Origin: a bacterium
GTDB taxonomy: Bacteria; Patescibacteriota; Minisyncoccia; Phycocordibacterales; Zambryskibacteraceae
Assembly (NCBI GenBank): GCA_030649135.1
Contig: JAUSGI010000006.1
Coordinates: forward strand, 43,534-107,533
DNA: 64,000 nucleotides
Direction of reading: 5' to 3'
A program made the translations under genes and the position numbers. This document shows positions 1,673-38,584 of the stretch, piece by piece. Position 1 is the first letter of the stretch, and the number at the start of each line of letters is the position of its first letter. A model generated the notes under the pieces. The model searched no databases, was not told where the DNA came from, and was given only the letters and a program-made list of their open reading frames with translations.

Positions 1673-3544
1673 TTATTTTTTAGCTTTGGCACGAAGCACT
1701 TTTGGTGTAATGACAATGCGTGATTCGTTGCCGTAAATATCCAAAAATACGAGCATGACATCACCTTTAATTTCTTTGGTGGGTAGCTCTATTTTCCACT
1801 TGTTATCTTTTATCGCGCTCGCGTAAAACGCTTTATCCAAATCAAATACCTTTCCGTTGTAATCGTAATCTACCATCACCATTGAAAGCGCGTCGTGCTT
1901 GCTAATTTTATCCTCTCCGCGCAGTCGCGCCTTGCTCTCAAACTTCTTTATTTTAACAGACACGGCTTGTTTCTTTGCGGCAAGCTCAAGCTCAACTACC
2001 GGCGGCTGGATAAAATCAAAACCCACCGCCTCAACGGTTTCGTTGATAGCCATTTCGTCGTTTGGCTGAACGAGCGCGGAAAATTTACGTCGGTGCAGTT
2101 CGTTGATAAAAGAATACGGAATACGAAGCGCGTAATATCGCACACCGTCCATTTCGAGATAATCCTCTTGGAAAAGGAACGCGCCGCGCGGAGCAATAAT
2201 AAAGCAACGATCTCCAACGGCTTTTCCAATGCTTGCGTGCAAGTCTGCTATTGTCTGCTGGCTAATCTGTCCTTCCTTAAAATGATTGAAAACATGAACG
2301 CTTGAACCTTGTCGCTTGCCATCCATTTGGAAGCCATGAATTTTGTGTGGCTCGTCTTTGCACTCAAAAAGCTGGAGCGCAAAAAATCGCCAATCTTCCC
2401 ACGGCAAATTTCTCAAATTCTCAAAATCATACAAACCAGCGTTATAAAGTGTGAACGGCTTGGCGGCAAGCGACTCACCAGTATTGCTGATATTTTTGCG
2501 TAAAGTTAGCATTCGTTTTTGAATGGTATAAACTGCGAGCTTACTTACATCAATTGCAATCCAGCGTCGCTCTAACTTTTCGGCTGTCGCGGAAGTCGTT
2601 CCCGAACCCGCAAAAACATCCATAACAATATCACCTTTATTTGAGGAAGCTTCAATAATGCGCTTAATCAATGCCTCTGGTTTCTGTGTCGGAAAATCAA
2701 CTCGCTCTTTTGAATCCGCCTCTGTACCTAAAGGATAAATATCTTCCCAAACATCCCTACATACAGAATTGTGATACCACTTTTGTTTGTCTTTATCGAA
2801 AAATTCAGGATATTTTTCACTAAAGTTATATTTCTTTTGCTGATACGATTTGTAGTATTGTGTGTTAAAAAGAAAATTACCGTTTTTTGCGTAGTAATAA
2901 ATATTATCGTGTTTTCTGGCAAAGAAATTTTTACTTACACCACCAGTCCTATAACTCCAAATAATCTCATTTATAAAATTTTGTTCTCCAAAAATTTCAT
3001 CCATTAAAACTTTTATGTAATGGCCTTTCCTATAATCAAGATGCACATAAATTCCACCATCATTTGCGAGTAACTCTTTTAAAAGAATAAGCCTCTTTCG
3101 CATAAATTCTAAAAATGCGCTGCCAGCAATTTTATCTTGATATGCTTTTTGATCTTGGCTTCCTTTGAAATCTCGCCGTGTTGAAAATGGTGGATCAATG
3201 TAAATAAGCCGAACGCCCGGCGTGCCGTCGGCGTTCACCAGCTTTCCATCTGCTTTCATTTGCAAAAGCGTCTTTATAGCCTGCAAATTGTCGCCAAAAA
3301 TAAGTTTGTTGTGCCAATCAACCCCGTTCTGTCCAAAAGTGCTGACTTCTTGAAACGGCACAGCCATTGTGTCGGCGAGAATTTGCTCCTCGGTTTCTTT
3401 GCCGTTGTAGACAAGTTCGTACTCGCGGCGTTCGGGCGGAAAAAACTCTCGCGCCCACTCTGCCGGAAGTTCCTCGCCGGTTTCGGTCAGCTTGAGTCCT
3501 CGTTTTAGCAACTCGTATATCTTTTCTTGACGACGTTTGTCCAT
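1673..3544 (-). CDS. mod: Type III R-M Mod subunit (beta-class N6-adenine DNA methyltransferase)
   Basis: 623 aa ORF. Motif IV IYIDPPFS (DPPF) precedes motif I VMDVFAGSGTT (FxGxG), the beta-class order typical of Type III Mod proteins. Immediately upstream of the res-like gene on the same strand. Confidence 0.85.
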   Translation of the reverse strand: MDKRRQEKIYELLKRGLKLTETGEELPAEWAREFFPPERREYELVYNGKETEEQILADTMAVPFQEVSTFGQNGVDWHNKLIFGDNLQAIKTLLQMKADGKLVNADGTPGVRLIYIDPPFSTRRDFKGSQDQKAYQDKIAGSAFLEFMRKRLILLKELLANDGGIYVHLDYRKGHYIKVLMDEIFGEQNFINEIIWSYRTGGVSKNFFARKHDNIYYYAKNGNFLFNTQYYKSYQQKKYNFSEKYPEFFDKDKQKWYHNSVCRDVWEDIYPLGTEADSKERVDFPTQKPEALIKRIIEASSNKGDIVMDVFAGSGTTSATAEKLERRWIAIDVSKLAVYTIQKRMLTLRKNISNTGESLAAKPFTLYNAGLYDFENLRNLPWEDWRFFALQLFECKDEPHKIHGFQMDGKRQGSSVHVFNHFKEGQISQQTIADLHASIGKAVGDRCFIIAPRGAFLFQEDYLEMDGVRYYALRIPYSFINELHRRKFSALVQPNDEMAINETVEAVGFDFIQPPVVELELAAKKQAVSVKIKKFESKARLRGEDKISKHDALSMVMVDYDYNGKVFDLDKAFYASAIKDNKWKIELPTKEIKGDVMLVFLDIYGNESRIVITPKVLRAKAKK

Positions 3545-5200: not shown

Positions 5201-5584
5201 ATGAAGACAATCTTAGTTGATGCTGTAGATTGTTTCGTTTCAGATACAGGAGAGATTTATAATGAAATGCACGATCTTCTTGAGACCTACCCTAACAAGA
5301 AGATTATTCTTACTGGTGCAAATGATGAGCAATTTCAGAAATTCGGCTTAGACAAGATGCCTTATGAGGTATTTACCCTAAAGCATAGTCCTGAAAAAAC
5401 AGACCCTTCCTATTATGTAAAGATGCTTGAGAACTTTGGATTAGGTAAGGAAGAGGTTATCTACTTTGAACACAACCCTGAAGCAGTTAAGAGCGCTCAA
5501 TCTGCTGGAATAAAATCTTATTTCTTTGATTACGATAAGAAGGACTTGGCAAGCCTAAAAATATTCTTAGATAAAGACCTGTAG
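5201..5584 (+). CDS. HAD-superfamily-like small hydrolase (possibly degenerate)
   Basis: Pattern ILVDAVDCF...ILTGAND...YFEHNPEAVKSAQSAG resembles HAD motifs I-IV, with substitutions at the catalytic Asp positions. Confidence 0.35.
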   Translation: MKTILVDAVDCFVSDTGEIYNEMHDLLETYPNKKIILTGANDEQFQKFGLDKMPYEVFTLKHSPEKTDPSYYVKMLENFGLGKEEVIYFEHNPEAVKSAQSAGIKSYFFDYDKKDLASLKIFLDKDL

Positions 5585-5590
5585 ATAATA

Positions 5591-5893
5591 ATGGGATATC
5601 TAATTCTTATCTTTTTCTTTGGAATCATACCGTCTATATTGTTATTGTATTTCGCGAGAAATTATTTTAATTGGAAAGCATTCGGCATTACAGTCTTTAT
5701 AGTATTTGTAGCGGCTTTTATCAGTGACTATATCGGAATTGAGAAAGAACTGTGGACCTATGGCATCAGTGGTACACAAACAATTGGTAAAACCGTCTTT
5801 GGCGTCCCAATAGAAGATTTAATATTCTTCCTCACAATTCCCCCATGGATTATTGGTAGCTACGAGTTATTGAAAGCTAAGTTTTCAAGATAG
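5591..5893 (+). CDS. hypothetical membrane protein (3 TM)
   Basis: 100 aa hydrophobic ORF. Confidence 0.4.
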   Translation: MGYLILIFFFGIIPSILLLYFARNYFNWKAFGITVFIVFVAAFISDYIGIEKELWTYGISGTQTIGKTVFGVPIEDLIFFLTIPPWIIGSYELLKAKFSR

Positions 5894-5999
5894 ACAGGTT
5901 TAATAAATACCCTTGCATGGTAATCGAGACCCATGGTCGCTGATTAATTTGACTTAATTTTATAATGTGTTATCGTCTACCCTAGAAAGGGGTGTCCGA

Positions 6000-6368
6000 A
6001 TGCCTAAGTCAGCAGGTAGAGAAAAGAAGCTGGTAGTGTACGGGCAGACCTTGCAGAAAGCTCGACTCTCCTCAGGCATACTCAACCAAAAGCAAGCAGC
6101 CTCCCGCCTAACAGATGGTGGGCTACAGTGCTCTCAGCCTCTTATCGCTCAACACGAGACTGGCCGGATAGTGGATCCTTCGCTAAATTTTTTGAAGGCC
6201 ATTGCAGCTTTGTACGAAGTTGACTACCGAGACCTGGTCGCTGTACTCGTGATGGATAAGTACGGTGTCGATTTCACCTCTGGAGAGAAGCCTCGGAACT
6301 TGCTGATCCAGCTCGTGGAAAAAAATCTGGAGGAGTTGCAAAAGGAGCTTGCCAGGCTCAAGAAATGA
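6000..6368 (+). CDS. XRE-family helix-turn-helix transcriptional regulator
   Basis: MPKSAGREKKLVVYGQTLQKARLSSGILNQKQAASRL...SQPLIAQHETGR fits the HTH_XRE pattern. ATG at 6000 follows a purine-rich aaagggg. The track's longer ORF starts at GTG 5967. Confidence 0.6.
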   Translation: MPKSAGREKKLVVYGQTLQKARLSSGILNQKQAASRLTDGGLQCSQPLIAQHETGRIVDPSLNFLKAIAALYEVDYRDLVAVLVMDKYGVDFTSGEKPRNLLIQLVEKNLEELQKELARLKK

Positions 6369-6388
6369 GTGTGGATGGGAAAATAAAG

Positions 6389-6430
6389 AACCGCTTACCA
6401 CAAAACTGGGGAGGCGGTTTTGTGTTTTAT
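6389..6430 (+). terminator. rho-independent terminator after the XRE regulator gene
   Basis: aaccgc...gcggtt stem followed by ttttgtgttttat. Confidence 0.5.
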
Positions 6431-6574
6431 ACGGAACTAAACCTCATAAGCTCTAAGCCTCGCACTATATTAGGCAAATTAAGAGTCCTGAACTGCTCAA
6501 CTAGAGAGTTCTGAACCCCGCCTGCCAGGCCCGGCGGGCAGGTCGTCCAATCATCGGAGCCATGATGGGAGCAC

Positions 6575-7267
6575 TTGGGATATAATGGGAGCATGATCGA
6601 TCAGATTAAAAAATGGAACCAAAGTCATACTGAAATTCCTAAAGATAAAAGTGTTTCTCAATATGCTATTGAAAGAGAGAAAGATTTTACAAGAAACTCA
6701 TTTGTCTGTGAATTGGGAGGAGGAACGGGAGCTGATGCCATTTATTTTTTGCAACATGAGCATAAAGTGGCTTTAGTTGATATTTCAGACTATGCCTTAA
6801 AAATAGCTTTGGAAAAAGCAGAACAACTAAGTTTAAAGTTGGAAACTCACAGGGTAACCTTAGGAAAAGATGCAATACCGTTAGAAGATGAGAGTATAGA
6901 TGTCGTTTATTCTAGACTCGCCCTGCACTATTTTGATTGGCAAACTACAGTCAACATTTTTAAAGAAATTTATCGCATAATGAAAAACGGAGGAAGAGCT
7001 TACATTACGGTCAAATCCCCCGATGATTATGAAGAAATGAGTTTTCTAAGACAAACAGCGGTAGAAAAAGATAAAGGTATTTTTATGGATAAAGGCGATA
7101 TCAAGAGTAGGTTTACAATAGAACAACTCGAAGCAATTTTAAGAGAAGCAGAAATACGCTCATTTGAGGTCAAGTCTTACTCTGAAAATTTCGGTACCAG
7201 GGTGGATAAAGTTAAATCTGGTAATACCCAGACGATTCTCAATGAGATACAAATTTCAAAAGTTTGA
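6575..7267 (+). CDS. class I SAM-dependent methyltransferase
   Basis: Motif I VCELGGGTGADAIYF (GxGxG) and a downstream acidic motif LVDISDYAL. 230 aa. Start uncertain; an alternative ATG is at 6593. Confidence 0.7.
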   Translation: MGYNGSMIDQIKKWNQSHTEIPKDKSVSQYAIEREKDFTRNSFVCELGGGTGADAIYFLQHEHKVALVDISDYALKIALEKAEQLSLKLETHRVTLGKDAIPLEDESIDVVYSRLALHYFDWQTTVNIFKEIYRIMKNGGRAYITVKSPDDYEEMSFLRQTAVEKDKGIFMDKGDIKSRFTIEQLEAILREAEIRSFEVKSYSENFGTRVDKVKSGNTQTILNEIQISKV

Positions 7268-7421
7268 CTATAAAGAGAATTTTATGGTCGCGGAGCCAAG
7301 TATTGACTTTGGTATCCGATTGTGATTGAATGTTTGAAGAAAGCACGGGGGACCCGATTTCGTCGTGATGTTTCTGCTTCAAAGTGTACGCATTTAGAGG
7401 CGCTAAGGAGGGAAACTGCTC

Positions 7422-7670
7422 GTGACGAACAATAGACCGAACGACATACACTGGGGTGCGTATCCGAAGGACGCTGTGCAGTGCGACGGCTGCGGTGGCC
7501 ATGGATGTGACGTCTGCGGCAACAGGGGCTGGTTGCCTGCTGGCCACCCTCAAGGAAGGCGATGCCGACGGGAAGGATGCAGGGAGCCGATTGCGCCGCC
7601 GCATTTCGGTGTCTACTGCACTCAAACATGCGCCTTCTTAGACAAGTCACGGACTCAGGACAGAATGTGA
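7422..7670 (+). CDS. small Cys-rich zinc-finger protein with two CxxCxGxG repeats, in a GC-rich island
   Basis: GTG start at 7422, 9 nt after the RBS aaggaggg. Contains CDGCGGHG and CDVCGNRG (DnaJ CR-type finger pattern) plus further Cys pairs. Followed by a strong hairpin terminator. Local GC is much higher than the flanks. Confidence 0.45.
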   Translation: MTNNRPNDIHWGAYPKDAVQCDGCGGHGCDVCGNRGWLPAGHPQGRRCRREGCREPIAPPHFGVYCTQTCAFLDKSRTQDRM

Positions 7671-7678
7671 CCGCCACC

Positions 7679-7736
7679 GCCGCGGGACGCGAGAAAAACC
7701 TCTCGTCCCGCGGCAGAGGGGCGGCTTTTCTTTTTA
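7679..7736 (+). terminator. rho-independent terminator
   Basis: ccgcgggacgcgaga / tctcgtcccgcgg 13-15 bp GC stem followed by cttttcttttt. Confidence 0.6.
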
Positions 7737-8067
7737 TACATAGATTCGAACATCCTCAACCCAGCCAAGTGGTATGAACGACAAAAAAGCTATTGAAATA
7801 TTAATGGGGATAGACCACAGGTATAAATTAAGCGACAAAGAAAAAGATGCTATTTCTTCAGCCATTGGCATGCTCAGCTAGTCTTCACTGACTCAAAGCA
7901 GACTAGAATCCAAGAAAAGAAAGCGAGACTAAGAATCACTCAGGTGGTGCCAAGCTATTGAACCTATACGTAACTATTGACAGAATATATTATATATGCT
8001 AGACTAGATAAGTAGCCAAATTCCACGCTAATTTCAAGACCACTTGGGATAGCTAAGGAGAAGAGAG

Positions 8068-8535
8068 ATGGCACAGCTCTTTGTAGTTGATCAGAACGGG
8101 CACGTGCTCAATAACAACGTAGCCAGCATCATCAACCTCCGGGCGCTCGGTAAGAACATCGATGCCGAGAAGAACGGATGGGTGTACACGTGGCAGGAGG
8201 TATTCACCAGCGGGACGTACAACCTGCCGAAACCAATCTGCCCCGAGGTTCTCACTTTCGGCACGGCGCGGGCCTACCTCCACGCAAGCAATGGAATCGG
8301 AGGACTGCGGGTCACGGCCCGCATCGAGTGTACGGACCCTGCGGTGCTGGAGAAGGCAATCGAAATCGTGGTCAAGTACGTCGGTGGAAAGGTCAGCACG
8401 TTTGACCTCAACCAGCCGGCGCAGCCGAACTCCTTTGTCGATGGAGTTCGGAATGACCTCAAGCGTCTCTGGCACTGGGTTCGGTACAACGCCCTGCTCA
8501 TGAGACGGCGCATCCTGCTCCGCCTCAGCATCTAA
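8068..8535 (+). CDS. hypothetical protein in GC-rich island
   Basis: 155 aa ORF with a strong RBS (taaggagaagagag then ATG). Upstream AT-rich promoter-like ttgaca(17)tagact with a TG extension. Several overlapping ORFs in other frames were judged artefacts of the high GC. Confidence 0.5.
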   Translation: MAQLFVVDQNGHVLNNNVASIINLRALGKNIDAEKNGWVYTWQEVFTSGTYNLPKPICPEVLTFGTARAYLHASNGIGGLRVTARIECTDPAVLEKAIEIVVKYVGGKVSTFDLNQPAQPNSFVDGVRNDLKRLWHWVRYNALLMRRRILLRLSI

Positions 8536-8557
8536 TCTGGAACAACAAGTAGTATCC

Positions 8558-8620
8558 GGCTCCACAAACGATTGGCTCTATACAGCCCGCCGTGTGTGGA
8601 GCCTTTCGTTTTCATTTTTA
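8558..8620 (+). terminator. rho-independent terminator
   Basis: ggctccacaaacg...cgtgtgtggagcc stem (one mismatch) followed by tttcgttttcattttta. Confidence 0.5.
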
Positions 8621-8657
8621 TACAAATTATTTTTCTACTTCTGATATACTTTCTGCC

Positions 8658-9287
8658 ATGGAACATCTGACCAATCTGTTCAAGCTTATGGAGTTAACCA
8701 GGTCTCAACCACAGTATGGCTATGCTTTGGCTGGCATTCAACAAGACGAATTAAGTAACCTTGCGGAGCACCACTACTTAGTCACTTTTATAGCGTGGCA
8801 ACTAGCTTCGCAGGTCAAGAAAGCCGGTGCCAAGATTGATATACGGAAAGTCTTGGAATTTGGACTCATTCACGACCTTGGAGAATTATTTGGGGGCGAC
8901 ATATCGATGCCATATGCTCGCGCCAATCCAAAGGCAAGAGAATACGCCAAAGCATTCGAAGAAGAGAATCAGAAATTCTTATCAAAATTTTTCGGCAATC
9001 AGTCCGAATACTTTAAGGAACTTGGGCATGAGATATTGGACGCAAAATCTGATGAATCTCTCATTGCCAAGATAGCCGATTATATCGAAGCAACTCACTA
9101 TAAGCAGTACGTAAAAGTATTCTCCAAATTCGATACAGATTTAATAAAACCAAAACTTGCGTCAATGGTCGAGAAAATGACCGACCCCATCGCCAAGAAA
9201 GAGTTGGGTAAATTTATCAATGACTGGACCAGCGATATTACAAAGAAAGAAATTCCCGAAATTCTGTATGAAAATACCGAGAAGTAG
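8658..9287 (+). CDS. HD-domain phosphohydrolase (YfbR-like 5'-deoxynucleotidase family)
   Basis: H...HD metal-binding pattern: EHHYLVTF ... GLIHDLGELFGGD. Start taken at ATG 8658 (MEHLTNLF); the track ORF begins at 8592 inside the upstream terminator. Confidence 0.65.
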   Translation: MEHLTNLFKLMELTRSQPQYGYALAGIQQDELSNLAEHHYLVTFIAWQLASQVKKAGAKIDIRKVLEFGLIHDLGELFGGDISMPYARANPKAREYAKAFEEENQKFLSKFFGNQSEYFKELGHEILDAKSDESLIAKIADYIEATHYKQYVKVFSKFDTDLIKPKLASMVEKMTDPIAKKELGKFINDWTSDITKKEIPEILYENTEK

Positions 9288-9474
9288 CAATAAACAATGT
9301 GGTTGAATCGAGGTAGAGATCCCAGCATTGCCGTGCGCAGCCCTTATGCTTACGGTTTTGTAAAAAGCATATTTTTTTTCATATAATTCGACCCCCCTAA
9401 ATCGATGACGGTCAATCTGTTTATAAGTAGATTTACCCAAAAAAGATAGTGGTGTATACTGAAATTGAACAATT

Positions 9475-10209
9475 ATGATTTCGTCTATTAACTGGAGCGT
9501 AGAAAATTTCTTTGGTCTTTTCGCCCTTACCATGGGCTTACTTTGTAGTATCTACTTTTTCTATGAATGGGTCAGGCATTACAGAAAACAAAATTACCTC
9601 CTCTTGTGGTCCATTAGCTTAGCGCTTTTTTATGTATTTCTGATTCCGTTCATTCAAATAAAATTTAGCGAGATAATTATTCTTACTGATTGGACAAATT
9701 TTTTCATTCCAACAGTTCCCTTTATATTTTTGGGCTGGGTACTTATCTATTGGACCATAACTCAAATAAAATCGTCCGTAACGGATAGAAAATCAGCCAG
9801 ACTTAAGGTATTTCTTTTGTTTTGGGTCCTTGCATCTTTTATTTTTTATTTTTTCAGATTTTCTTCAACAGAAAACGGGAAGTTATTGTCAATTATCGGT
9901 CTTTTAATTTTCTTTATCACTATACATGTTTTCATTCTCTCAGCGTTATGGAAGTTATTTAAAACGGAACGTTGGCAAAAAAACATGCGGGTAAATGCTG
10001 GCATTATTTTTATAGCGAGCGCAATTATTATTTCTATCGTAAGATATCTGTTTCTTCTTAACAGCCTTATGAGACTTCCCGGAGATTTTTGGTTTTTGTC
10101 GATAGCATCGTTTGATTTCGTATTTATTTTAAGAAGTGTGGTTGTTATTCTATTAACTATTGGCTTTGTCCTGATACATAAGCACTATCTTCTCAAGTCT
10201 AGGATATAA
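9475..10209 (+). CDS. hypothetical polytopic membrane protein
   Basis: 244 aa with about 7 hydrophobic helices. Upstream extended -10-like tggtgtatact. Confidence 0.5.
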   Translation: MISSINWSVENFFGLFALTMGLLCSIYFFYEWVRHYRKQNYLLLWSISLALFYVFLIPFIQIKFSEIIILTDWTNFFIPTVPFIFLGWVLIYWTITQIKSSVTDRKSARLKVFLLFWVLASFIFYFFRFSSTENGKLLSIIGLLIFFITIHVFILSALWKLFKTERWQKNMRVNAGIIFIASAIIISIVRYLFLLNSLMRLPGDFWFLSIASFDFVFILRSVVVILLTIGFVLIHKHYLLKSRI

Positions 10210-10261
10210 ATATACTCCTTTTGTTTCTGTGTAATGGTTCTAACATCACTCACGGTGCGAA

Positions 10262-10489
10262 TTGGCTTTCAAACAACGTCTCAGGGAGAACTTGAGGGAC
10301 AAATTAGATGGAGACGAGGGTATGTATGAGCGTGAAACTGTAGTAAAAGATTTCGATGCTACTCGCGAGATACTTCTTAAAATTGGACCGATTGAAAATC
10401 AGATTTATCGTCTGAAAGGACTGGACGACAGAAATTACACTAAACTTACCTTCTCCGAACAAATAAAGCGCGCAGAAAACAAATTTTAA
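10262..10489 (+). CDS. hypothetical small protein
   Basis: 75 aa ORF, charged; no recognised motif. Confidence 0.3.
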   Translation: MAFKQRLRENLRDKLDGDEGMYERETVVKDFDATREILLKIGPIENQIYRLKGLDDRNYTKLTFSEQIKRAENKF

Positions 10490-10506
10490 TACAAAACAGT
10501 TGGCGG

Positions 10507-10543
10507 AATAGAAAAGGAAGTCGTAGAGTCACCTACGACTTCC
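10507..10543 (-). terminator. rho-independent terminator for minus-strand transcripts
   Basis: Perfect 11 bp stem ggaagtcgtag/ctacgacttcc with a 6 nt loop. On the minus strand it is followed by ttttctatt. Confidence 0.55.
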
Positions 10544-11289
10544 AAAAACAATGTCGGGCACATCACTACACTCTCGGGAGCCACCCGAGGAGGGATTGCA
10601 AACTCCATCCCATGTGAAAACTCACGAGCGAAATCGCTATCACGATGATTACGAAGACGATGGTCCAGTCATAACTGTAGCTAGGCTTAGGCGTCGCCTT
10701 CGGTCTCTCGACAATCCAGAGTAAGTTATGAAGGTCATCCCTCTTTCGCATTTGCTTTCTCCTACCGTGCCTAGCGCTTGGCACATCTGGTTGTGAGAAC
10801 AATCGCAGTGCCATCCCCATTGATGACAGCGGAGGAAGTAACTTGCTTGCATCCGGCGGTGATGTAGAGAGTCATTTCTTGTTCATTCAGCACCCTCTTA
10901 AAGTCTCTGGGCGCGAGATTCTCCGAAGTGCTGACCTTCCGGCTGATGACTTGCACCTCCTCTAGAGGGGGAGCATTAGCGCCTACAAATGACCATGCAG
11001 ACATCACCAGCAACACCGCCACTAGCACCTCTACCATCACGCCCTCCTTCGTTCTCTGCGTTTTGTTCGGTACGGAGAATTACGATTGAGAACGGCGCAC
11101 CACGCAGCGCCGTCCTTTCCCGCTTCTACATTTCCTGCGAGAAACACATGACCCCCAACGAGAATGTCTTCCGAACCTACGTCATCGACGGGATGTTTAT
11201 CACATCGCCTCGGACTCATCGTACGCGGATCGAAGTCATCGCCCAGACATACGGGGCACACTTCAGCAACCCCTGCCATGTCTACCATG

Positions 11290-11657: not shown

Positions 11658-12401
11658 ATGTACTATCAGCTTCTCTTGGTGTTCGGTGTCGCAATGCTCT
11701 TGTCACAAGTGGCCGTGCTCGCGACGACCATCCAACTGCATCGTGCCGCAACACATGCAACGCTTGGAGGGCTCGTCCTCGATCCGAAGGTTGCATGGGC
11801 ATGCAATCTCATCCTGTGGATTACCACTGGTCAGAGGAGGAGGCAGTGGGTGGCCGTGCACCGCAAGCACCACGTCTTCACAGACAAGGTGGGTGACCCG
11901 CACAGCCCACGCGTGCTCGGCTTCTGGCATGTCCAACTCGGCAACGTCTTTTACTATGTGTGGGCGCTGAGGGAGAAAGATATCCTGGACAAGTACGCTC
12001 CCGATATCCAGGAAGACAAGTGGGACCGGTGGCTCTTCAACCACGGCAAGCTTGGTCTCCTGCTAGGAACGGTAGCACTCTGCTCGCTCATGGGCATGTG
12101 GTGGGGACTGCTCACGGCACTAATTCATGCCGTGACATACATCTTCGTCATCGCCTCCTCCATCAACGGCCTGTGCCACACCTACGGCTACAGGAACTTC
12201 GATAACACAGCGACTAATCTGCGTCTCCTCGCGTGGATCACCGGAGGCGAAGGGTTGCACAACAACCATCACGAATACCCAACTCGTGCGAAGTTCAGTT
12301 TCTTCCCGGGCGAGTGGGACCCAGGGTGGTCGATCATCAAGCTTTTGATCAGAGTCAACCTGGCCACCATGAAGAAGACCCTTTGGACAGTCCCGAGGTA
12401 A
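11658..12401 (+). CDS. membrane fatty-acid (acyl-lipid/acyl-CoA delta-9-type) desaturase
   Basis: Three histidine boxes in order: HRAATH, HRKHH, HNNHH, with hydrophobic N-terminal helices. 247 aa. Local GC is clearly higher than the flanks. Confidence 0.75.
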   Translation: MYYQLLLVFGVAMLLSQVAVLATTIQLHRAATHATLGGLVLDPKVAWACNLILWITTGQRRRQWVAVHRKHHVFTDKVGDPHSPRVLGFWHVQLGNVFYYVWALREKDILDKYAPDIQEDKWDRWLFNHGKLGLLLGTVALCSLMGMWWGLLTALIHAVTYIFVIASSINGLCHTYGYRNFDNTATNLRLLAWITGGEGLHNNHHEYPTRAKFSFFPGEWDPGWSIIKLLIRVNLATMKKTLWTVPR

Positions 12402-12435: not shown

Positions 12436-12471
12436 ACCCTGGGCGCATAGCGCCCAGGGTTGTTTTCATTC
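12436..12471 (+). terminator. rho-independent terminator after the desaturase gene
   Basis: Perfect 12 bp stem aaccctgggcgc / gcgcccagggtt with loop ata, then gttttcatt. Confidence 0.7.
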
Positions 12472-31197: not shown

Positions 31198-31689
31198 CTA
31201 CGCAGAGACGACAGATAAGTCGCAGACACAGAGGAACACATCGTCCTCGTCCAGCTCGCGGTCGAAGCTTGCCAGATGGAAGCCGAAGCCTCCGCGCTCG
31301 AGAACGACGAGGTTGGGCACCTCGTACTTCAAGAGACGTTCCGGCTCGTCGAGGGAGGCATACCACCGGCCCTTACAGAGACTCTCCCTCCATTCTTCAA
31401 AGACGAGGGAGAGACCGGCAGATCCAATGAACACATTTCTTGCTTGCTTGCGACAGAACGCCACCCGCTCTGCGTACGTCGTCTTGCCTGGCATTACTTG
31501 CCCGAATACTCGAAACCACAGCTTGTCACCAGGCCTAGGAATGCGGGTGGGACGGAAATGCCGGTCAGACCTGGCTCTATCGTCGTAAACGAAGTAGCCA
31601 GCATTTTGCTTGCGGAGTGATGCTGGACGATAGTTCTCCGACACCGTGGTCACACCGAAATCATCCAGTAGGTCAAACTTAGTCATCAT
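31198..31689 (-). CDS. hypothetical protein encoded in a GC-rich insertion
   Basis: 163 aa ORF with distinctly higher GC than the flanks, Arg/Asp-rich, with its own terminator. Confidence 0.45.
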   Translation of the reverse strand: MMTKFDLLDDFGVTTVSENYRPASLRKQNAGYFVYDDRARSDRHFRPTRIPRPGDKLWFRVFGQVMPGKTTYAERVAFCRKQARNVFIGSAGLSLVFEEWRESLCKGRWYASLDEPERLLKYEVPNLVVLERGGFGFHLASFDRELDEDDVFLCVCDLSVVSA

Positions 31690-36700: not shown

Positions 36701-36776
36701 TGGAGCCGGAGGCGAGATTCGAACTCGCGACTTACCCCTTACGAAGGGGTTACTCTACCAACTGAGTTACTCCGGC
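36701..36776 (-). tRNA. tRNA-Thr (anticodon CGU), CCA encoded
   Basis: Manual cloverleaf: GCCGGAG/CTCCGGC acceptor, D-loop AGTTGGTA, anticodon loop TTCGTAA, T-loop TTCGAAT, then TCCA. Confidence 0.85.
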
Positions 36777-36826
36777 TTACTGCTCTACTTCACCCCGCCT
36801 AGCCCGGGCGGGGCAAGCTGAGCTAA
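36777..36826. repeat. about 50 bp element immediately 5' of tRNA-Thr(CGU), copy A
   Basis: ttactgctctacttcaccccgcctagcccgggcggggcaagctgagcta shares about 85% identity with 36940..36990 and contains the hairpin ccccgcc/ggcgggg. Confidence 0.6.
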
Positions 36827-36863
36827 GGTGGCACTACTTCGCCTAGGCTACGAAGTGCGAAGC

Positions 36864-36939
36864 TGGAGCCAGAGGGGAGAATCGGACTCCCGACCTCTTT
36901 CTTACCATGAAAGCGTTCTACCACTGAACTACTCTGGCT
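36864..36939 (-). tRNA. tRNA-Thr (anticodon GGU), CCA encoded
   Basis: Manual cloverleaf: GCCAGAG/CTCTGGC acceptor, D-loop AGTGGTA, anticodon loop ATGGTAA, T-stem GGGAG/CTCCC, T-loop TCCGATT. Confidence 0.8.
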
Positions 36940-36990
36940 TATTGTGCTCTACTTCACCCCACCTAAGTCAGGCGGGGCAAGCTGAGCTAT
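36940..36990. repeat. about 50 bp element immediately 5' of tRNA-Thr(GGU), copy B
   Basis: ttattgtgctctacttcaccccacctaagtcaggcggggcaagctgagcta. Confidence 0.6.
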
Positions 36991-37067
36991 CTTGGCAAAC
37001 AAAAGAATGGCTCTAATCTTATAGAGTTTAAAGCCCTTTTGCAAAATAGCGTCCGGATGACTGGTCG

Positions 37068-37952
37068 CTAATCGTCATCCTCCTCTCCTTCCTCATCTTC
37101 CTGCTTATCAAGCTTGTCTTCTACTTCCTCCAGACTTTTATCCGCCTGCTTCGCTAGTTGTTTGGCCCCTTGGTAATTTTCCTTTTGAAATAACTCTTTG
37201 GCTTGGGCCAGGAGTCTGTCAAATTTGGTAAAGAAACCCTGGGTCAGAACAACGCCATTCTTTTCAGCGTCGGCCAATAATTTTTGTTTCTCTGCCTCTG
37301 CTTCTCTGATGGCTTGTTCCGCGTCATCTTTCTTATCCAGTTCTTTCTCAATTTTGTCTTCTTCCTGTTCCATAGCTTTTTTCTGTTCGTCTTTTTGGAG
37401 TTCCAACGCCTTCTTCTGGCTATCTATATCAAGCAATTCTTTGGTTAAGGACTCCACCAGAGCGGTGTTGCCAGCTTGCCGAGCCTCTTGGATTTGATCT
37501 TTGAGTTCTTCCTTCCTGATTTTCAAAACTCGCTTCTGGTCTTTAAAAGACTGGTCAAGGGCACTTCGGGAAGCTTCAAATTGGTCATCAAGCTCTTTGG
37601 CAAGCTTACTGACATCTTTACCTTCGGTTTTTTCTTTCGTGATTATGTCGGAAACCCTGGCAAGGTGCGCGTCCATTCTGCTTTGGGCAACCTCAAGACC
37701 TTTGGCATCTATGCCGTCTGTTTCCAAGAGAATTTTAATCTCGGCAATACGTTCGGAAGCAAAACTAATCTGCAGACGAGCTTTTGCCTCTGGACTGAAA
37801 GCCAGAAACTCTTGTAAAGCCTCACCCAATTTGTCCAAGAAATAAAAAGAGTTTAGCGGAGTCAGTCCGGCATTCGGCAACTCTGGCTCGGCCTGGGCCA
37901 GCGAGATAAACGGAACCAGCAACAAAACCGCAAGATATTTTTTGGTCTTCAT
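37068..37952 (-). CDS. secreted coiled-coil protein with acidic C-terminus
   Basis: Signal peptide MKTKKYLAVLLLVPFISLAQA; long Lys/Glu/Ala/Leu heptad-like region; C-terminal EDEEGEEDDD. Confidence 0.5.
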   Translation of the reverse strand: MKTKKYLAVLLLVPFISLAQAEPELPNAGLTPLNSFYFLDKLGEALQEFLAFSPEAKARLQISFASERIAEIKILLETDGIDAKGLEVAQSRMDAHLARVSDIITKEKTEGKDVSKLAKELDDQFEASRSALDQSFKDQKRVLKIRKEELKDQIQEARQAGNTALVESLTKELLDIDSQKKALELQKDEQKKAMEQEEDKIEKELDKKDDAEQAIREAEAEKQKLLADAEKNGVVLTQGFFTKFDRLLAQAKELFQKENYQGAKQLAKQADKSLEEVEDKLDKQEDEEGEEDDD

Positions 37953-38026
37953 GAATAAGCCTAAAATATTAATACTTAGATTATACCATGGTGCGCTGGG
38001 TAGTGGACCGCGGAACTAGGATTATG

Positions 38027-38257
38027 CTATCTCCTTTCTATCACAATTCCAATACATGCGTTTCCCCCACCAGCATCAGGGCAAGAGCGGCCATCGGGTG
38101 TTTTGCAAGAATTATCGATTTTAATTCCTAAACAGTCACACTCCCTGTGGATATACCCCCACGCGTAATTCGTATAATCGCAAGATTTGGGATAAATAAC
38201 ATAACCAATAAGGACAAGCCCTGTTATTATTAAAATAATTTGAATAGTTCTTTTCAT
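38027..38257 (-). CDS. small secreted Cys-rich protein
   Basis: 76 aa, N-terminal TM/signal, 8 Cys. Confidence 0.4.
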   Translation of the reverse strand: MKRTIQIILIITGLVLIGYVIYPKSCDYTNYAWGYIHRECDCLGIKIDNSCKTPDGRSCPDAGGGNACIGIVIERR

Positions 38258-38259
38258 AG

Positions 38260-38333
38260 CGCGGTCAACCGGACTTGAACCGGCAACCTCTCCCGTGACA
38301 GGGGAGTGCTCTAACCAGTTGAGCTATGACCGC
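38260..38333 (-). tRNA. tRNA-Asp (anticodon GUC)
   Basis: GCGGTCA/TGACCGC acceptor, anticodon loop CTGTCAC, T-loop TTCAAGT, discriminator G. CCA not encoded. Confidence 0.85.
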
Positions 38334-38375
38334 AATGGATTACAAATTAGCAGATTTTCGCCACTAATTCAATTG

Positions 38376-38446
38376 TGCCGGTGAATGGAATCGGACCATT
38401 GTTTGAGGCTTATGAGTCCTCTGTTCTGCCATTGAACTACACCGGC
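38376..38446 (-). tRNA. tRNA-Met (anticodon CAU; initiator, elongator or Ile2/lysidine not distinguishable)
   Basis: GCCGGTG/CACCGGC acceptor, short D-loop AATGGCA, anticodon loop CTCATAA with an A-G at the 31-39 pair, T-loop TCCGATT. 71 nt, no CCA. Confidence 0.65.
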
Positions 38447-38584
38447 AATAGCCTTGATACTATATTATGAAATCTTGATTTTCTCAATAAAAAGCGTATG
38501 ATGGGCGGGACAGCGGGTTGGAGGAGTAGTACCTCGACAGGCTCATAACCTGTAGGCATCCGTGCAAATCGGGTACCCGCAACA

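Follow-up and report, generated by a model that had tools for sequence, protein, structure and literature searches.

A 64,000-nucleotide stretch of the contig JAUSGI010000006.1 (positions 43,534 to 107,533, hereafter the window) of a groundwater-type bacterium with a tiny genome contains, at its own positions 7268-8625, a segment with two small genes rich in guanine and cytosine (GC). One open reading frame (ORF) encodes a cysteine-rich protein of 82 amino acids (aa) and the other a protein of 155 aa, and we refer to them as ORF82 and ORF155. The data support both genes being compositionally foreign, self-contained units. They are probably two independent imports into a variable region, ORF82 being a phage-derived, moron-like zinc-finger gene and ORF155 a wandering cassette with a cis-regulatory hairpin. 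Patescibacteria have tiny genomes in which most lineage-specific genes have no assigned function and gene exchange is poorly understood. The compositional island as such is an ordinary finding, and the interest of the segment rests on three results: a phage-type gene that annotation has missed, a protein family whose fold matches nothing significantly, and a new, covariation-supported leader motif on a cassette that can lie within the S10 operon.

Composition and expression signals of the two units

The GC content was judged against the whole window and against 400-bp windows, and each gene was ranked among the 64 genes of the window. With a window GC content of 45.8% and a standard deviation of 5.2% for the 400-bp windows, ORF82 (7422-7670, 59.4% GC) ranked first of the 64 genes (z = 2.7) and ORF155 (8068-8535, 58.1% GC) ranked second (z = 2.5). 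ORF155 stood out further at third codon positions, where its GC content (GC3) was 0.769 against a mean of 0.472 (rank 1 of 64, z = 3.2), and its codon usage was the least native of all 64 genes (z = -3.1). The segment of 1358 bp as a whole has 51.6% GC, which is the mean of two GC-rich ORFs and AT-richer spacers (43.1% at 7671-8067 and 44.8% at 7268-7421). The genes flanking it are low in GC, with 34.9% for the methyltransferase gene, 41.1% for the HD hydrolase gene and 33.2% for a membrane protein gene at 9475-10209, and the core of the window lies at about 47-50%. The local GC contrast is therefore inflated, because the flanks of the island are themselves low-GC outliers relative to the core.

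Each gene has its own signals on the plus strand. ORF82 starts with GTG at 7422 behind the Shine-Dalgarno sequence AAGGAGG (7405-7411), encodes eight cysteines, and is followed by an intrinsic terminator at 7671-7735, in which a hairpin (7671-7724, -42.2 kcal/mol, z = -6.6) precedes CTTTTCTTTTT; this terminator was found by folding and by two further scans. A candidate promoter, TTGACT and TGaTTGAAT (extended -10-like) spaced by 17 nt, was seen by eye at 7303-7331 and fails the -10 criterion of our promoter scan. Transcription by read-through from the methyltransferase gene is equally possible, since no terminator lies between 7267 and 7421. ORF155 has a sigma-70-type promoter at 7977-8005 (TTGACA, 17 nt, TAGACT, with an upstream TG; scan score 10 of 12), the Shine-Dalgarno sequence AAGGAG at 8055-8060 before the ATG at 8068, and an intrinsic terminator at 8558-8619, predicted by folding, which consists of a hairpin (8558-8603, -26.5 kcal/mol, z = -4.7) and a T-rich tail. 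These results bear out most of what a first-pass annotation had read from the letters, namely a jump in base composition over the flanks, a GTG-started 82-aa cysteine-rich gene with a good ribosome-binding site, a promoter-like segment and a strong ribosome-binding site before the second gene, and a strong terminator after each of them.

When the whole window was scanned on both strands, the three strongest sites with a hairpin and a T-run proved to sit after the three most GC-rich genes, namely ORF82, ORF155 and a fatty-acid desaturase gene (11658-12401; 56.3% GC, GC3 0.73). The hairpin behind the desaturase gene, ending at 12462, was the strongest of that scan (-28.3 kcal/mol), and this gene seems to form a third stand-alone unit of high GC content.

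Public gene finders did not call ORF82, a GC-rich island often turns out to be a structured RNA where the genome is richer in AT, and long ORFs run on both strands of each block, so that the blocks might be taken for assembly or binning chimeras or for structured non-coding RNAs. We regard such an explanation as most improbable. Over 12,784 bases that include the island and both blocks, the independent Logan assembly of run SRR13727527 agrees with the window without a mismatch, which makes a one-off chimera unlikely, and AT-rich sequence lies between and around the blocks on one and the same contig. The non-coding RNA reading of the blocks was rejected because no Rfam family matches the segment 7268-8625. 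Protein-level homologues exist for both genes, and ORF155 has a confident AlphaFold model on its family alignment. The GC contents of ORF155 at the three codon positions of the plus strand are 0.59, 0.39 and 0.77, and this pattern (GC3 > GC1 > GC2) accounts for the long ORF of the other strand as a side effect of composition.

Relatives of ORF82 lie on viral and high-GC contigs

The exact ORF82 protein was absent from 15 billion predicted proteins, and the gene has thus been missed by public annotation. In a word-indexed search of 5.8 billion proteins the sole match was P0002 (61% identical), which is encoded on two short contigs (66-67% GC) in a series of small genes, where each start overlaps the stop before it. 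Scans of IMG/VR yielded three further relatives on viral contigs of 96 kb (62% GC), 18.6 kb (63%) and 70 kb (55%). The 18.6-kb contig also encodes a portal protein and a large terminase (PHROG E = 1e-80), the latter being closest to those of Roseobacter and Paracoccus phages (34-36% identity). The relatives of ORF82 number five, with 45-61% identity at the protein level and 68-76% at the nucleotide level, the latter in the coding core only, and no relative was found in any Patescibacteria sequence. For ORF82 and ORF155 alike, nothing significant came from searches of Pfam, NCBIfam, PHROGs and PADLOC, and tblastn against 50,697 phage records gave no match.

The cysteines of ORF82 are spaced C-x2-C-x4-C-x2-C and then C-x4-C-x12-C-x3-C. 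All eight are invariant in the six sequences including ORF82, which makes zinc binding likely, and they most likely form two Zn(Cys)4 sites. The six proteins have in common DAVQC-x-GCGGHGC-xx-C-xxx-GW and a second block, C-x4-C-x-KP...YC-x3-CA. We infer a phage origin for ORF82 and a zinc protein with two sites. It would then be a phage-type gene, invisible to standard annotation, in a Parcubacteria-like chromosome.

On two of the phage contigs, a CxxCxxCC-type protein (phrog_9155) is encoded beside the ORF82 relative or at most 2 kb from it (L004, 10219-10773; L005, 7390-7977). This protein may be a conserved partner of the ORF82 relatives within phages.

ORF155 belongs to a rare Patescibacteria family

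The NCBI annotation lists ORF155 as a hypothetical protein, and a word-indexed protein search returned only the protein itself. HMMER over 1.84 billion representatives recovered 20 relatives (E from 6e-17 to 4e-4), that is 21 clusters with ORF155, which are 140-218 aa long and 29-48% identical to it over the matched stretches; a metagenome scan for the family contributed only one locus. The family alignment is conserved at W42, an RIES motif, the GG at 106-107 and NSFVxGVxNDLxRL. AlphaFold modelled ORF155 on this alignment with a mean predicted local distance difference test score (pLDDT) of 84.9, compared with 51 for a single-sequence model. The predicted order is a strand, two short helices, four strands, a helix and a long basic C-terminal helix, so that an alpha/beta domain would come first. 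The protein matched no known domain and no solved fold significantly, the match to a TBP-like fold being weak only.

All full-length relatives with a named source come from Patescibacteria, namely a Saccharibacteria metagenome-assembled genome (MAG) and a 'Patescibacteria group' MAG, and the Patescibacteria genomes that carry relatives (Saccharibacteria and Parcubacteria-like) have 45-54% GC. One relative is encoded 3.6 kb away from a sigma70-dnaG-rpoC cluster, and the sigma-70 of this cluster shares 73% identity with that of the window. Among 2.9 million viral contigs no member of the family was present, and the DNA pattern of its leader was absent there as well.

A 70-codon ORF in a Microbacteriaceae MAG (JAHEGG010000004.1, 7950-8159) contains KPNSFVDGVRNDLDRS, which differs little from the motif of ORF155 that is most conserved. 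The match covers 40 residues (94-133 of ORF155) with E = 4e-5 among candidate stretches only, the rest of the family sequence is absent, and the contig has 55.7% GC, seemingly low for Microbacteriaceae. A remnant or mere coincidence may explain it. We set it aside as a fragment of 40 residues.

An origin of the island in a high-GC host bacterium such as an actinobacterium, which the first-pass annotation had put forward as a speculation, is very unlikely in light of these relatives. The nearest relatives of ORF82 do lie on DNA of 62-67% GC, and the 40-residue match in the Microbacteriaceae MAG, the sole trace of actinobacteria, also speaks for such a donor, with an E-value that applies to candidate stretches only. 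However, the high-GC relatives of ORF82 are on viral or short contigs, and the one terminase among them is closest to phages of Alphaproteobacteria; the Microbacteriaceae match is confined to residues 94-133 within a 70-codon ORF and came from the search pattern itself; and the named full-length relatives of ORF155 are all in other Patescibacteria. The host of the window is Parcubacteria-like and not a member of Saccharibacteria, so that the argument from an epibiont living on Actinobacteria does not transfer to it.

A covariation-supported hairpin in the ORF155 leader

The cassettes of the ORF155 family were compared at nine distinct loci. A sigma-70-type promoter (TTGACA-17-TAnAAT-type) was present in 8 of the 8 loci with readable upstream DNA (the contig of L008 is too short), followed by a leader of 56-92 nt, a GGAG Shine-Dalgarno sequence and an ORF encoding about 150 aa. 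In 8 of the 8 loci with enough downstream DNA, the gene is followed by a GC hairpin with a T-run. The leader is recognisable at the DNA level though the proteins are only about 30-40% identical.

The ORF155 leader of the window (8008-8067, plus strand) is matched end to end by a covariance model, R1, that we built from seven sequences, and contains a possible anti-Shine-Dalgarno TTCC at 8021-8024. Within it, covariation defines a conserved bulged hairpin at 8028-8052, made up of CUA, a bulged A (8031), UUUCAAG, the loop ACCA (8039-8042), CUUGGGA and UAG. In seven loci the hairpin has a lower stem of 3 bp, one bulged purine, an upper stem of 7 bp of free sequence (10 bp in total) and an ACCA loop closed by a G-C pair, and it ends 2-10 nt before the Shine-Dalgarno sequence. 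Two other loci (L023 and L008) have a variant, read directly, with a 6-bp stem UCCRGC...GCYGGA and a loop of AAA or ACA. These variants could not be aligned by MAFFT and were left out of the statistics, which cover the seven loci.

The pairing was tested on a MAFFT alignment of the seven sequences made without structure. All 70 of the aligned cells were paired, and changes on both sides occurred at 6 of the 10 pairs (15 cells). The covariation score was 0.743 compared with 0.297 in shuffled alignments, and none of 500 shuffles reached the observed value; when the partners were slid by 1-3 columns, only 31-46% of the cells were paired. RNAalifold independently gave the same hairpin, together with an outer helix that pairs an upstream UCCU with the AGGA of the Shine-Dalgarno sequence. 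G-U pairs occur at 4 of the 10 positions, so the hairpin forms on the plus strand only, which fits RNA. In the 266 kb examined, R1 matched only upstream of ORF155-family genes. No Rfam family overlapped the leader, with E allowed up to 5 for the window and up to 1 for three other loci (L006, L007 and L022), and the literature offered nothing usable on a Patescibacteria RNA motif or a PheRS zinc motif. The leader motif is previously undescribed and supported by covariation, and we are highly confident that its hairpin is a real, selected RNA structure. A stretch upstream of the methyltransferase gene, GAGCACTTGGGATA, was dismissed as a further copy of the leader, as it has no 5' arm and its pattern occurs at chance frequency.

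As to its role, the hairpin might act as an RNA operator of translation, with the cassette's own protein as the most plausible ligand and with the upstream UCCU able to pair the Shine-Dalgarno sequence. We prefer this operator because of the analogy to ribosomal-protein leaders and phage coat operators, the position of the hairpin beside the Shine-Dalgarno sequence and the weak match to a TBP-like fold, and put it forward as a tentative suggestion that may well prove wrong. If it holds, the cassette would offer a new RNA-protein regulatory pair and a marker of gene flow among uncultured bacteria.

Contexts of the ORF155 cassette and signs of mobility

No neighbouring gene is common across the nine ORF155-family loci, except for rpsJ in two. 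The cassette lies between rpsJ and rplC of the S10 operon in one locus (represented by contigs L025-L027) and directly after rpsJ in another (L006, where the contig ends soon after); elsewhere it is found inside a suf cluster (L018), near ClpB (L008), about 100 nt from a tRNA gene (L007) and adjoining a protein with an HTH_38 domain (L023). The S10 proteins of L006 (1-318) and L025 (5135-5503) are 83% identical, compared with 38% over 101 residues for their cassette proteins. Either the cassette diverges very fast at a fixed site after rpsJ, or it has been inserted repeatedly at a hot spot.

In L025-L027, which are Patescibacteria-like, the S10 operon is interrupted twice, at 5503-6616 and at 9294-10815. 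The gap between rpsJ and rplC holds a 66-aa ORF and the ORF155-family cassette, and the gap between rplB and rpsS holds a 182-aa ORF and a Y1 (IS200-type) transposase.

Direct repeats flank the cassette in some loci. They measure 40 nt in L018 (7776-7815 and 8480-8519), 43 nt in L020 (7846-7888 and 8501-8543) and 13 nt in L022, and the repeat of L018 comprises the whole terminator hairpin, the loop of one copy being the reverse complement of the other. No such repeats were found in L025 or L007. In the window, a repeat search found TTTTC-TTTTTATACA at 7726-7740 and TTTTCATTTTTATACA, that is TTTTC(A)TTTTTATACA, at 8609-8624, both on the plus strand and bracketing the spacer and the ORF155 cassette. 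As a flanking repeat this 15-16-nt pair is suggestive only (shuffle P ~0.045). Likewise suggestive only is the 9-mer ATACAAATT, which brackets the island with one copy at 7247-7255, in the 3' end of the methyltransferase gene, and one at 8620-8628, past the ORF155 terminator; the pair could be a target duplication or chance. Most repeats within 5500-10800 were at chance level. The AT-rich spacer contains a 35-codon ORF on the plus strand, MNDKKAIEILMGIDHRYKLSDKEKDAISSAIGMLS (7774-7881). Neither the spacer nor this ORF had a match in the compared sequences, and the ORF had none in Pfam or NCBIfam.

An alternative is that the leader hairpin works as DNA, for instance by forming an end for recombination or transposition or by serving a repressor as its operator, in which case the cassette would be a non-autonomous element mobilised in trans, like the palindrome-associated elements of the IS200/IS605 family. 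The many contexts, the direct repeats of some loci, the Y1 transposase 3.5 kb from the cassette in L025 and the presence of a hairpin near each end of the unit all suit this explanation, which we nevertheless hold to be improbable. The hairpin is located between the promoter and the Shine-Dalgarno sequence, inside the transcribed leader, and its G-U pairs, which form on the plus strand only, exclude a palindromic operator in double-stranded DNA but not a role of single-stranded DNA. Furthermore, the flanking repeats lie outside the promoter and the terminator and not at the hairpin, and no Y1 transposase gene was called in the other loci retrieved or found among the window ORFs scanned.

A wider role of the family can be considered alongside the RNA operator. 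The ORF155 family could be a new kind of autonomous single-gene element of Patescibacteria, whose promoter, operator leader, ORF and terminator would move together into intergenic sites (including the rpsJ-rplC gap). Its protein would set its own level by binding the leader RNA, and the gene would be selfish or conflict-related, with a fold unseen in solved structures. We consider this doubtful as a complete description.

Host and neighbourhood of the island

Relatives of the HD protein encoded next to the island include those of Candidatus Zambryskibacteria and other Parcubacteria. Compared with a Zambryskibacteria MAG, the identity is 85% for the HD protein (85-86% across the Zambryskibacteria-like genomes L010-L012 and L015-L016), 71% for sigma-70, 65% for RpoC and 51% for DnaG. 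The gene order in these relatives is rpoB-rpoC-HD-thyA-dnaG-sigma70, in DNA of 38% GC, whereas in the window dnaG directly follows rpoC with neither the HD gene nor thyA between them, and the HD gene (8658-9287) lies 10 kb off. It looks relocated or re-acquired from a low-GC relative. Since the HD gene is elsewhere in relatives and rpoC and dnaG are adjacent here, the flanks of the island are themselves rearranged, relocated or imported. The first-pass annotation had proposed asking whether the methyltransferase gene adjoins the HD gene elsewhere; in relatives with 65% identical RpoC the HD gene sits between rpoC and thyA, and no methyltransferase gene is beside it. With flanks that are not conserved at this evolutionary distance, no empty site can be obtained by comparing synteny.

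The first 12.5 kb of the window form a mosaic of low- and high-GC genes, most of them without a recognised domain. A DNA methylase gene (N6/N4 type, 623 aa, 1673-3544 on the minus strand, Pfam E = 1e-46) marks the edge of this variable region, and a 133-aa protein with an XRE-type helix-turn-helix is encoded at 5967-6368 with unusual codon usage (z = -2.6). No tRNA gene lies near the island. The five tRNA genes at 36701-38583 (Thr-CGT, Thr-GGT, Asp and two Met, one of these on the opposite strand) are unrelated to it.

Discussion

We infer horizontal transfer of both genes, and the course of events was probably as follows. Two self-contained transcription units would have been inserted into a mosaic, variable stretch (about 1.7-12.5 kb of the window) of a Parcubacteria-like genome. 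The first, ORF82, would be phage-derived and moron-like and would have arrived together with its strong ribosome-binding site and terminator. The second, the ORF155 cassette, would move between Patescibacteria genomes or repeatedly relocate within them, and would keep its GC-rich composition at every site.

Several observations weigh against this course of events. The window is compositionally patchy as a whole, and the 1358-bp block is no tetranucleotide outlier, with 26% of equally long windows being as far from the window mean. In 9 of 9 loci the ORF155-family gene exceeds the remainder of its contig in GC content, by 0.5-12.4 points and by 5.7 on average, so that GC by itself argues less strongly for transfer than the first-pass annotation took it to. 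Domain scans found no integrase, transposase or phage gene within about 6 kb of the island, and the nucleotide identity of either gene to any relative is 68-80% and limited to coding cores, so that no recent donor is in hand. The covariation evidence for the hairpin comes from only seven sequences. The pairing probability of the Shine-Dalgarno sequence is 0.71 compared with 0.56 in 16 genes of the window, a marginal difference (P = 0.053), and its pairing by the upstream UCCU is weakly supported.

Some of these points agree with both genes being long-resident and native, their GC-richness arising from constraints on the individual gene, for instance through its amino-acid composition, the structure of its mRNA or the level of its expression. 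The GC excess shared by all nine loci and the lack of a mobility gene nearby fit this explanation, as do the other GC-rich genes of the window (56% for the fatty-acid desaturase gene and 55.5% for the gene at 31198-31689). It is unlikely, however, as the excess of ORF155 is concentrated at third positions (GC3 0.77 against 0.47) and its codon usage is the least native of the 64 genes, the relatives of ORF82 are found only in phage or high-GC contigs and none in Patescibacteria, and the ORF155-family loci lie in unrelated contexts, some of them flanked by direct repeats. The GC excess in 9 of 9 loci has two possible readings: either the cassette moves faster than its composition drifts to that of the host, or its composition is under a constraint peculiar to the cassette. 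On either reading the excess is a trait of the ORF155 family and no fingerprint of an actinobacterial donor. The GC contrast of the island calls for caution, since the gene family itself and the low-GC flanks each account for part of it, and it is silent on the donor.

Among the claims of the first-pass annotation, horizontal acquisition is supported in part, by gene-level composition, by the terminators that each gene carries and by patchy relatives in unrelated contexts, and not by the tetranucleotide composition of the 1358-bp block. The composition check it had called for came out divided in the same way, with gene-level GC and the codon usage of ORF155 outlying and the whole block ordinary by tetranucleotides. 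The import of two independent units thus remains the reading we favour. For further work the ORF155 family provides a testable system, with a compact unit, a new RNA hairpin, a confident predicted structure and repeated placement, including in the S10 operon.

Comparison with known systems

ORF82 resembles the cysteine-rich domain of DnaJ in having one strict CxxCxGxG (CDGCGGHG, C21-G28) followed by a second CxxC...G motif. The first-pass annotation had counted two CxxCxGxG repeats; the first holds, and the second (CDVCGNRG in ORF82) is CxxCGxxG and varies within the family (CDTCAGQG, CSACGKRG and CEKCKQRG). DnaJ differs in having four repeats and two interleaved zinc centres, and its domain is embedded in Hsp40, whereas ORF82 is a stand-alone protein of 82 aa without a J domain or any other domain, with its other four cysteines spaced Cx4Cx12Cx3C. 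The Pfam family DnaJ_CXXCXGXG (PF00684) gave no match to ORF82 at E up to 1, and with E raised to 10 all four family members tested were still unmatched, so the label 'DnaJ-type' reduces to a resemblance of motifs. The best profile match in the PDB aligned VQCDGCGGHGCDVCGNRGWL with the CxxC-x4-CxxC-x3-GW of bacterial PheRS alpha (4p71, 2rhq; E = 0.0036), but this match is marginal, spans only 22 residues, and comes from an unrelated context, an insertion in a 338-aa enzyme.

Ogr of phage P2 and Com of phage Mu are small phage zinc-finger regulators of 60-80 aa with Cys4 sites. The ORF82 family is phage-encoded and of similar size, and ORF82 may be a functional analogue of these regulators; against the PHROG families no similarity was detected, the best hit (E = 0.024) being to a family of unknown function. 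Phage morons, a concept of Juhala, Hendrix and colleagues, are reportedly autonomous transcription units in temperate phage genomes. The units of the island are like morons in consisting of a single small gene with its own promoter (seen by eye only for ORF82) and terminator and in having a composition unlike the surroundings, and the relatives of ORF82 are phage-encoded. They are unlike morons in that no prophage or phage hallmark surrounds the genes of the window, that the ORF82 relatives in phage contigs sit in tightly packed runs (with start/stop overlaps in L001 and L002) and not as stand-alone genes, and that the ORF155 family has no viral relatives.

Integron cassettes are also single-gene units that end in an imperfect palindrome, and the ORF155 cassettes share this layout, with varied contexts and sometimes boundary repeats. 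Unlike attC sites, however, the hairpins of the ORF155 cassettes have no RYYYAAC...GTTRRRY cores, and no integron integrase gene lies nearby; the ORF155 cassettes, unlike those of integrons, bring a promoter with them, and T-runs come after the 3' hairpins as in terminators.

The coat-protein operator of MS2 is a hairpin with a bulged A and an ANYA tetraloop that serves as a translational operator, as do ribosomal-protein leaders. The ORF155 hairpin differs from the MS2 operator in that its bulge lies 7 bp below the loop and not 2, and from translational operators in that it contains neither the Shine-Dalgarno sequence nor the start codon. It resembles them in its single bulged purine, in its conserved four-base loop (ACCA fits ANYA), in adjoining the ribosome-binding site, and in a stem whose sequence varies while its pairing is kept.

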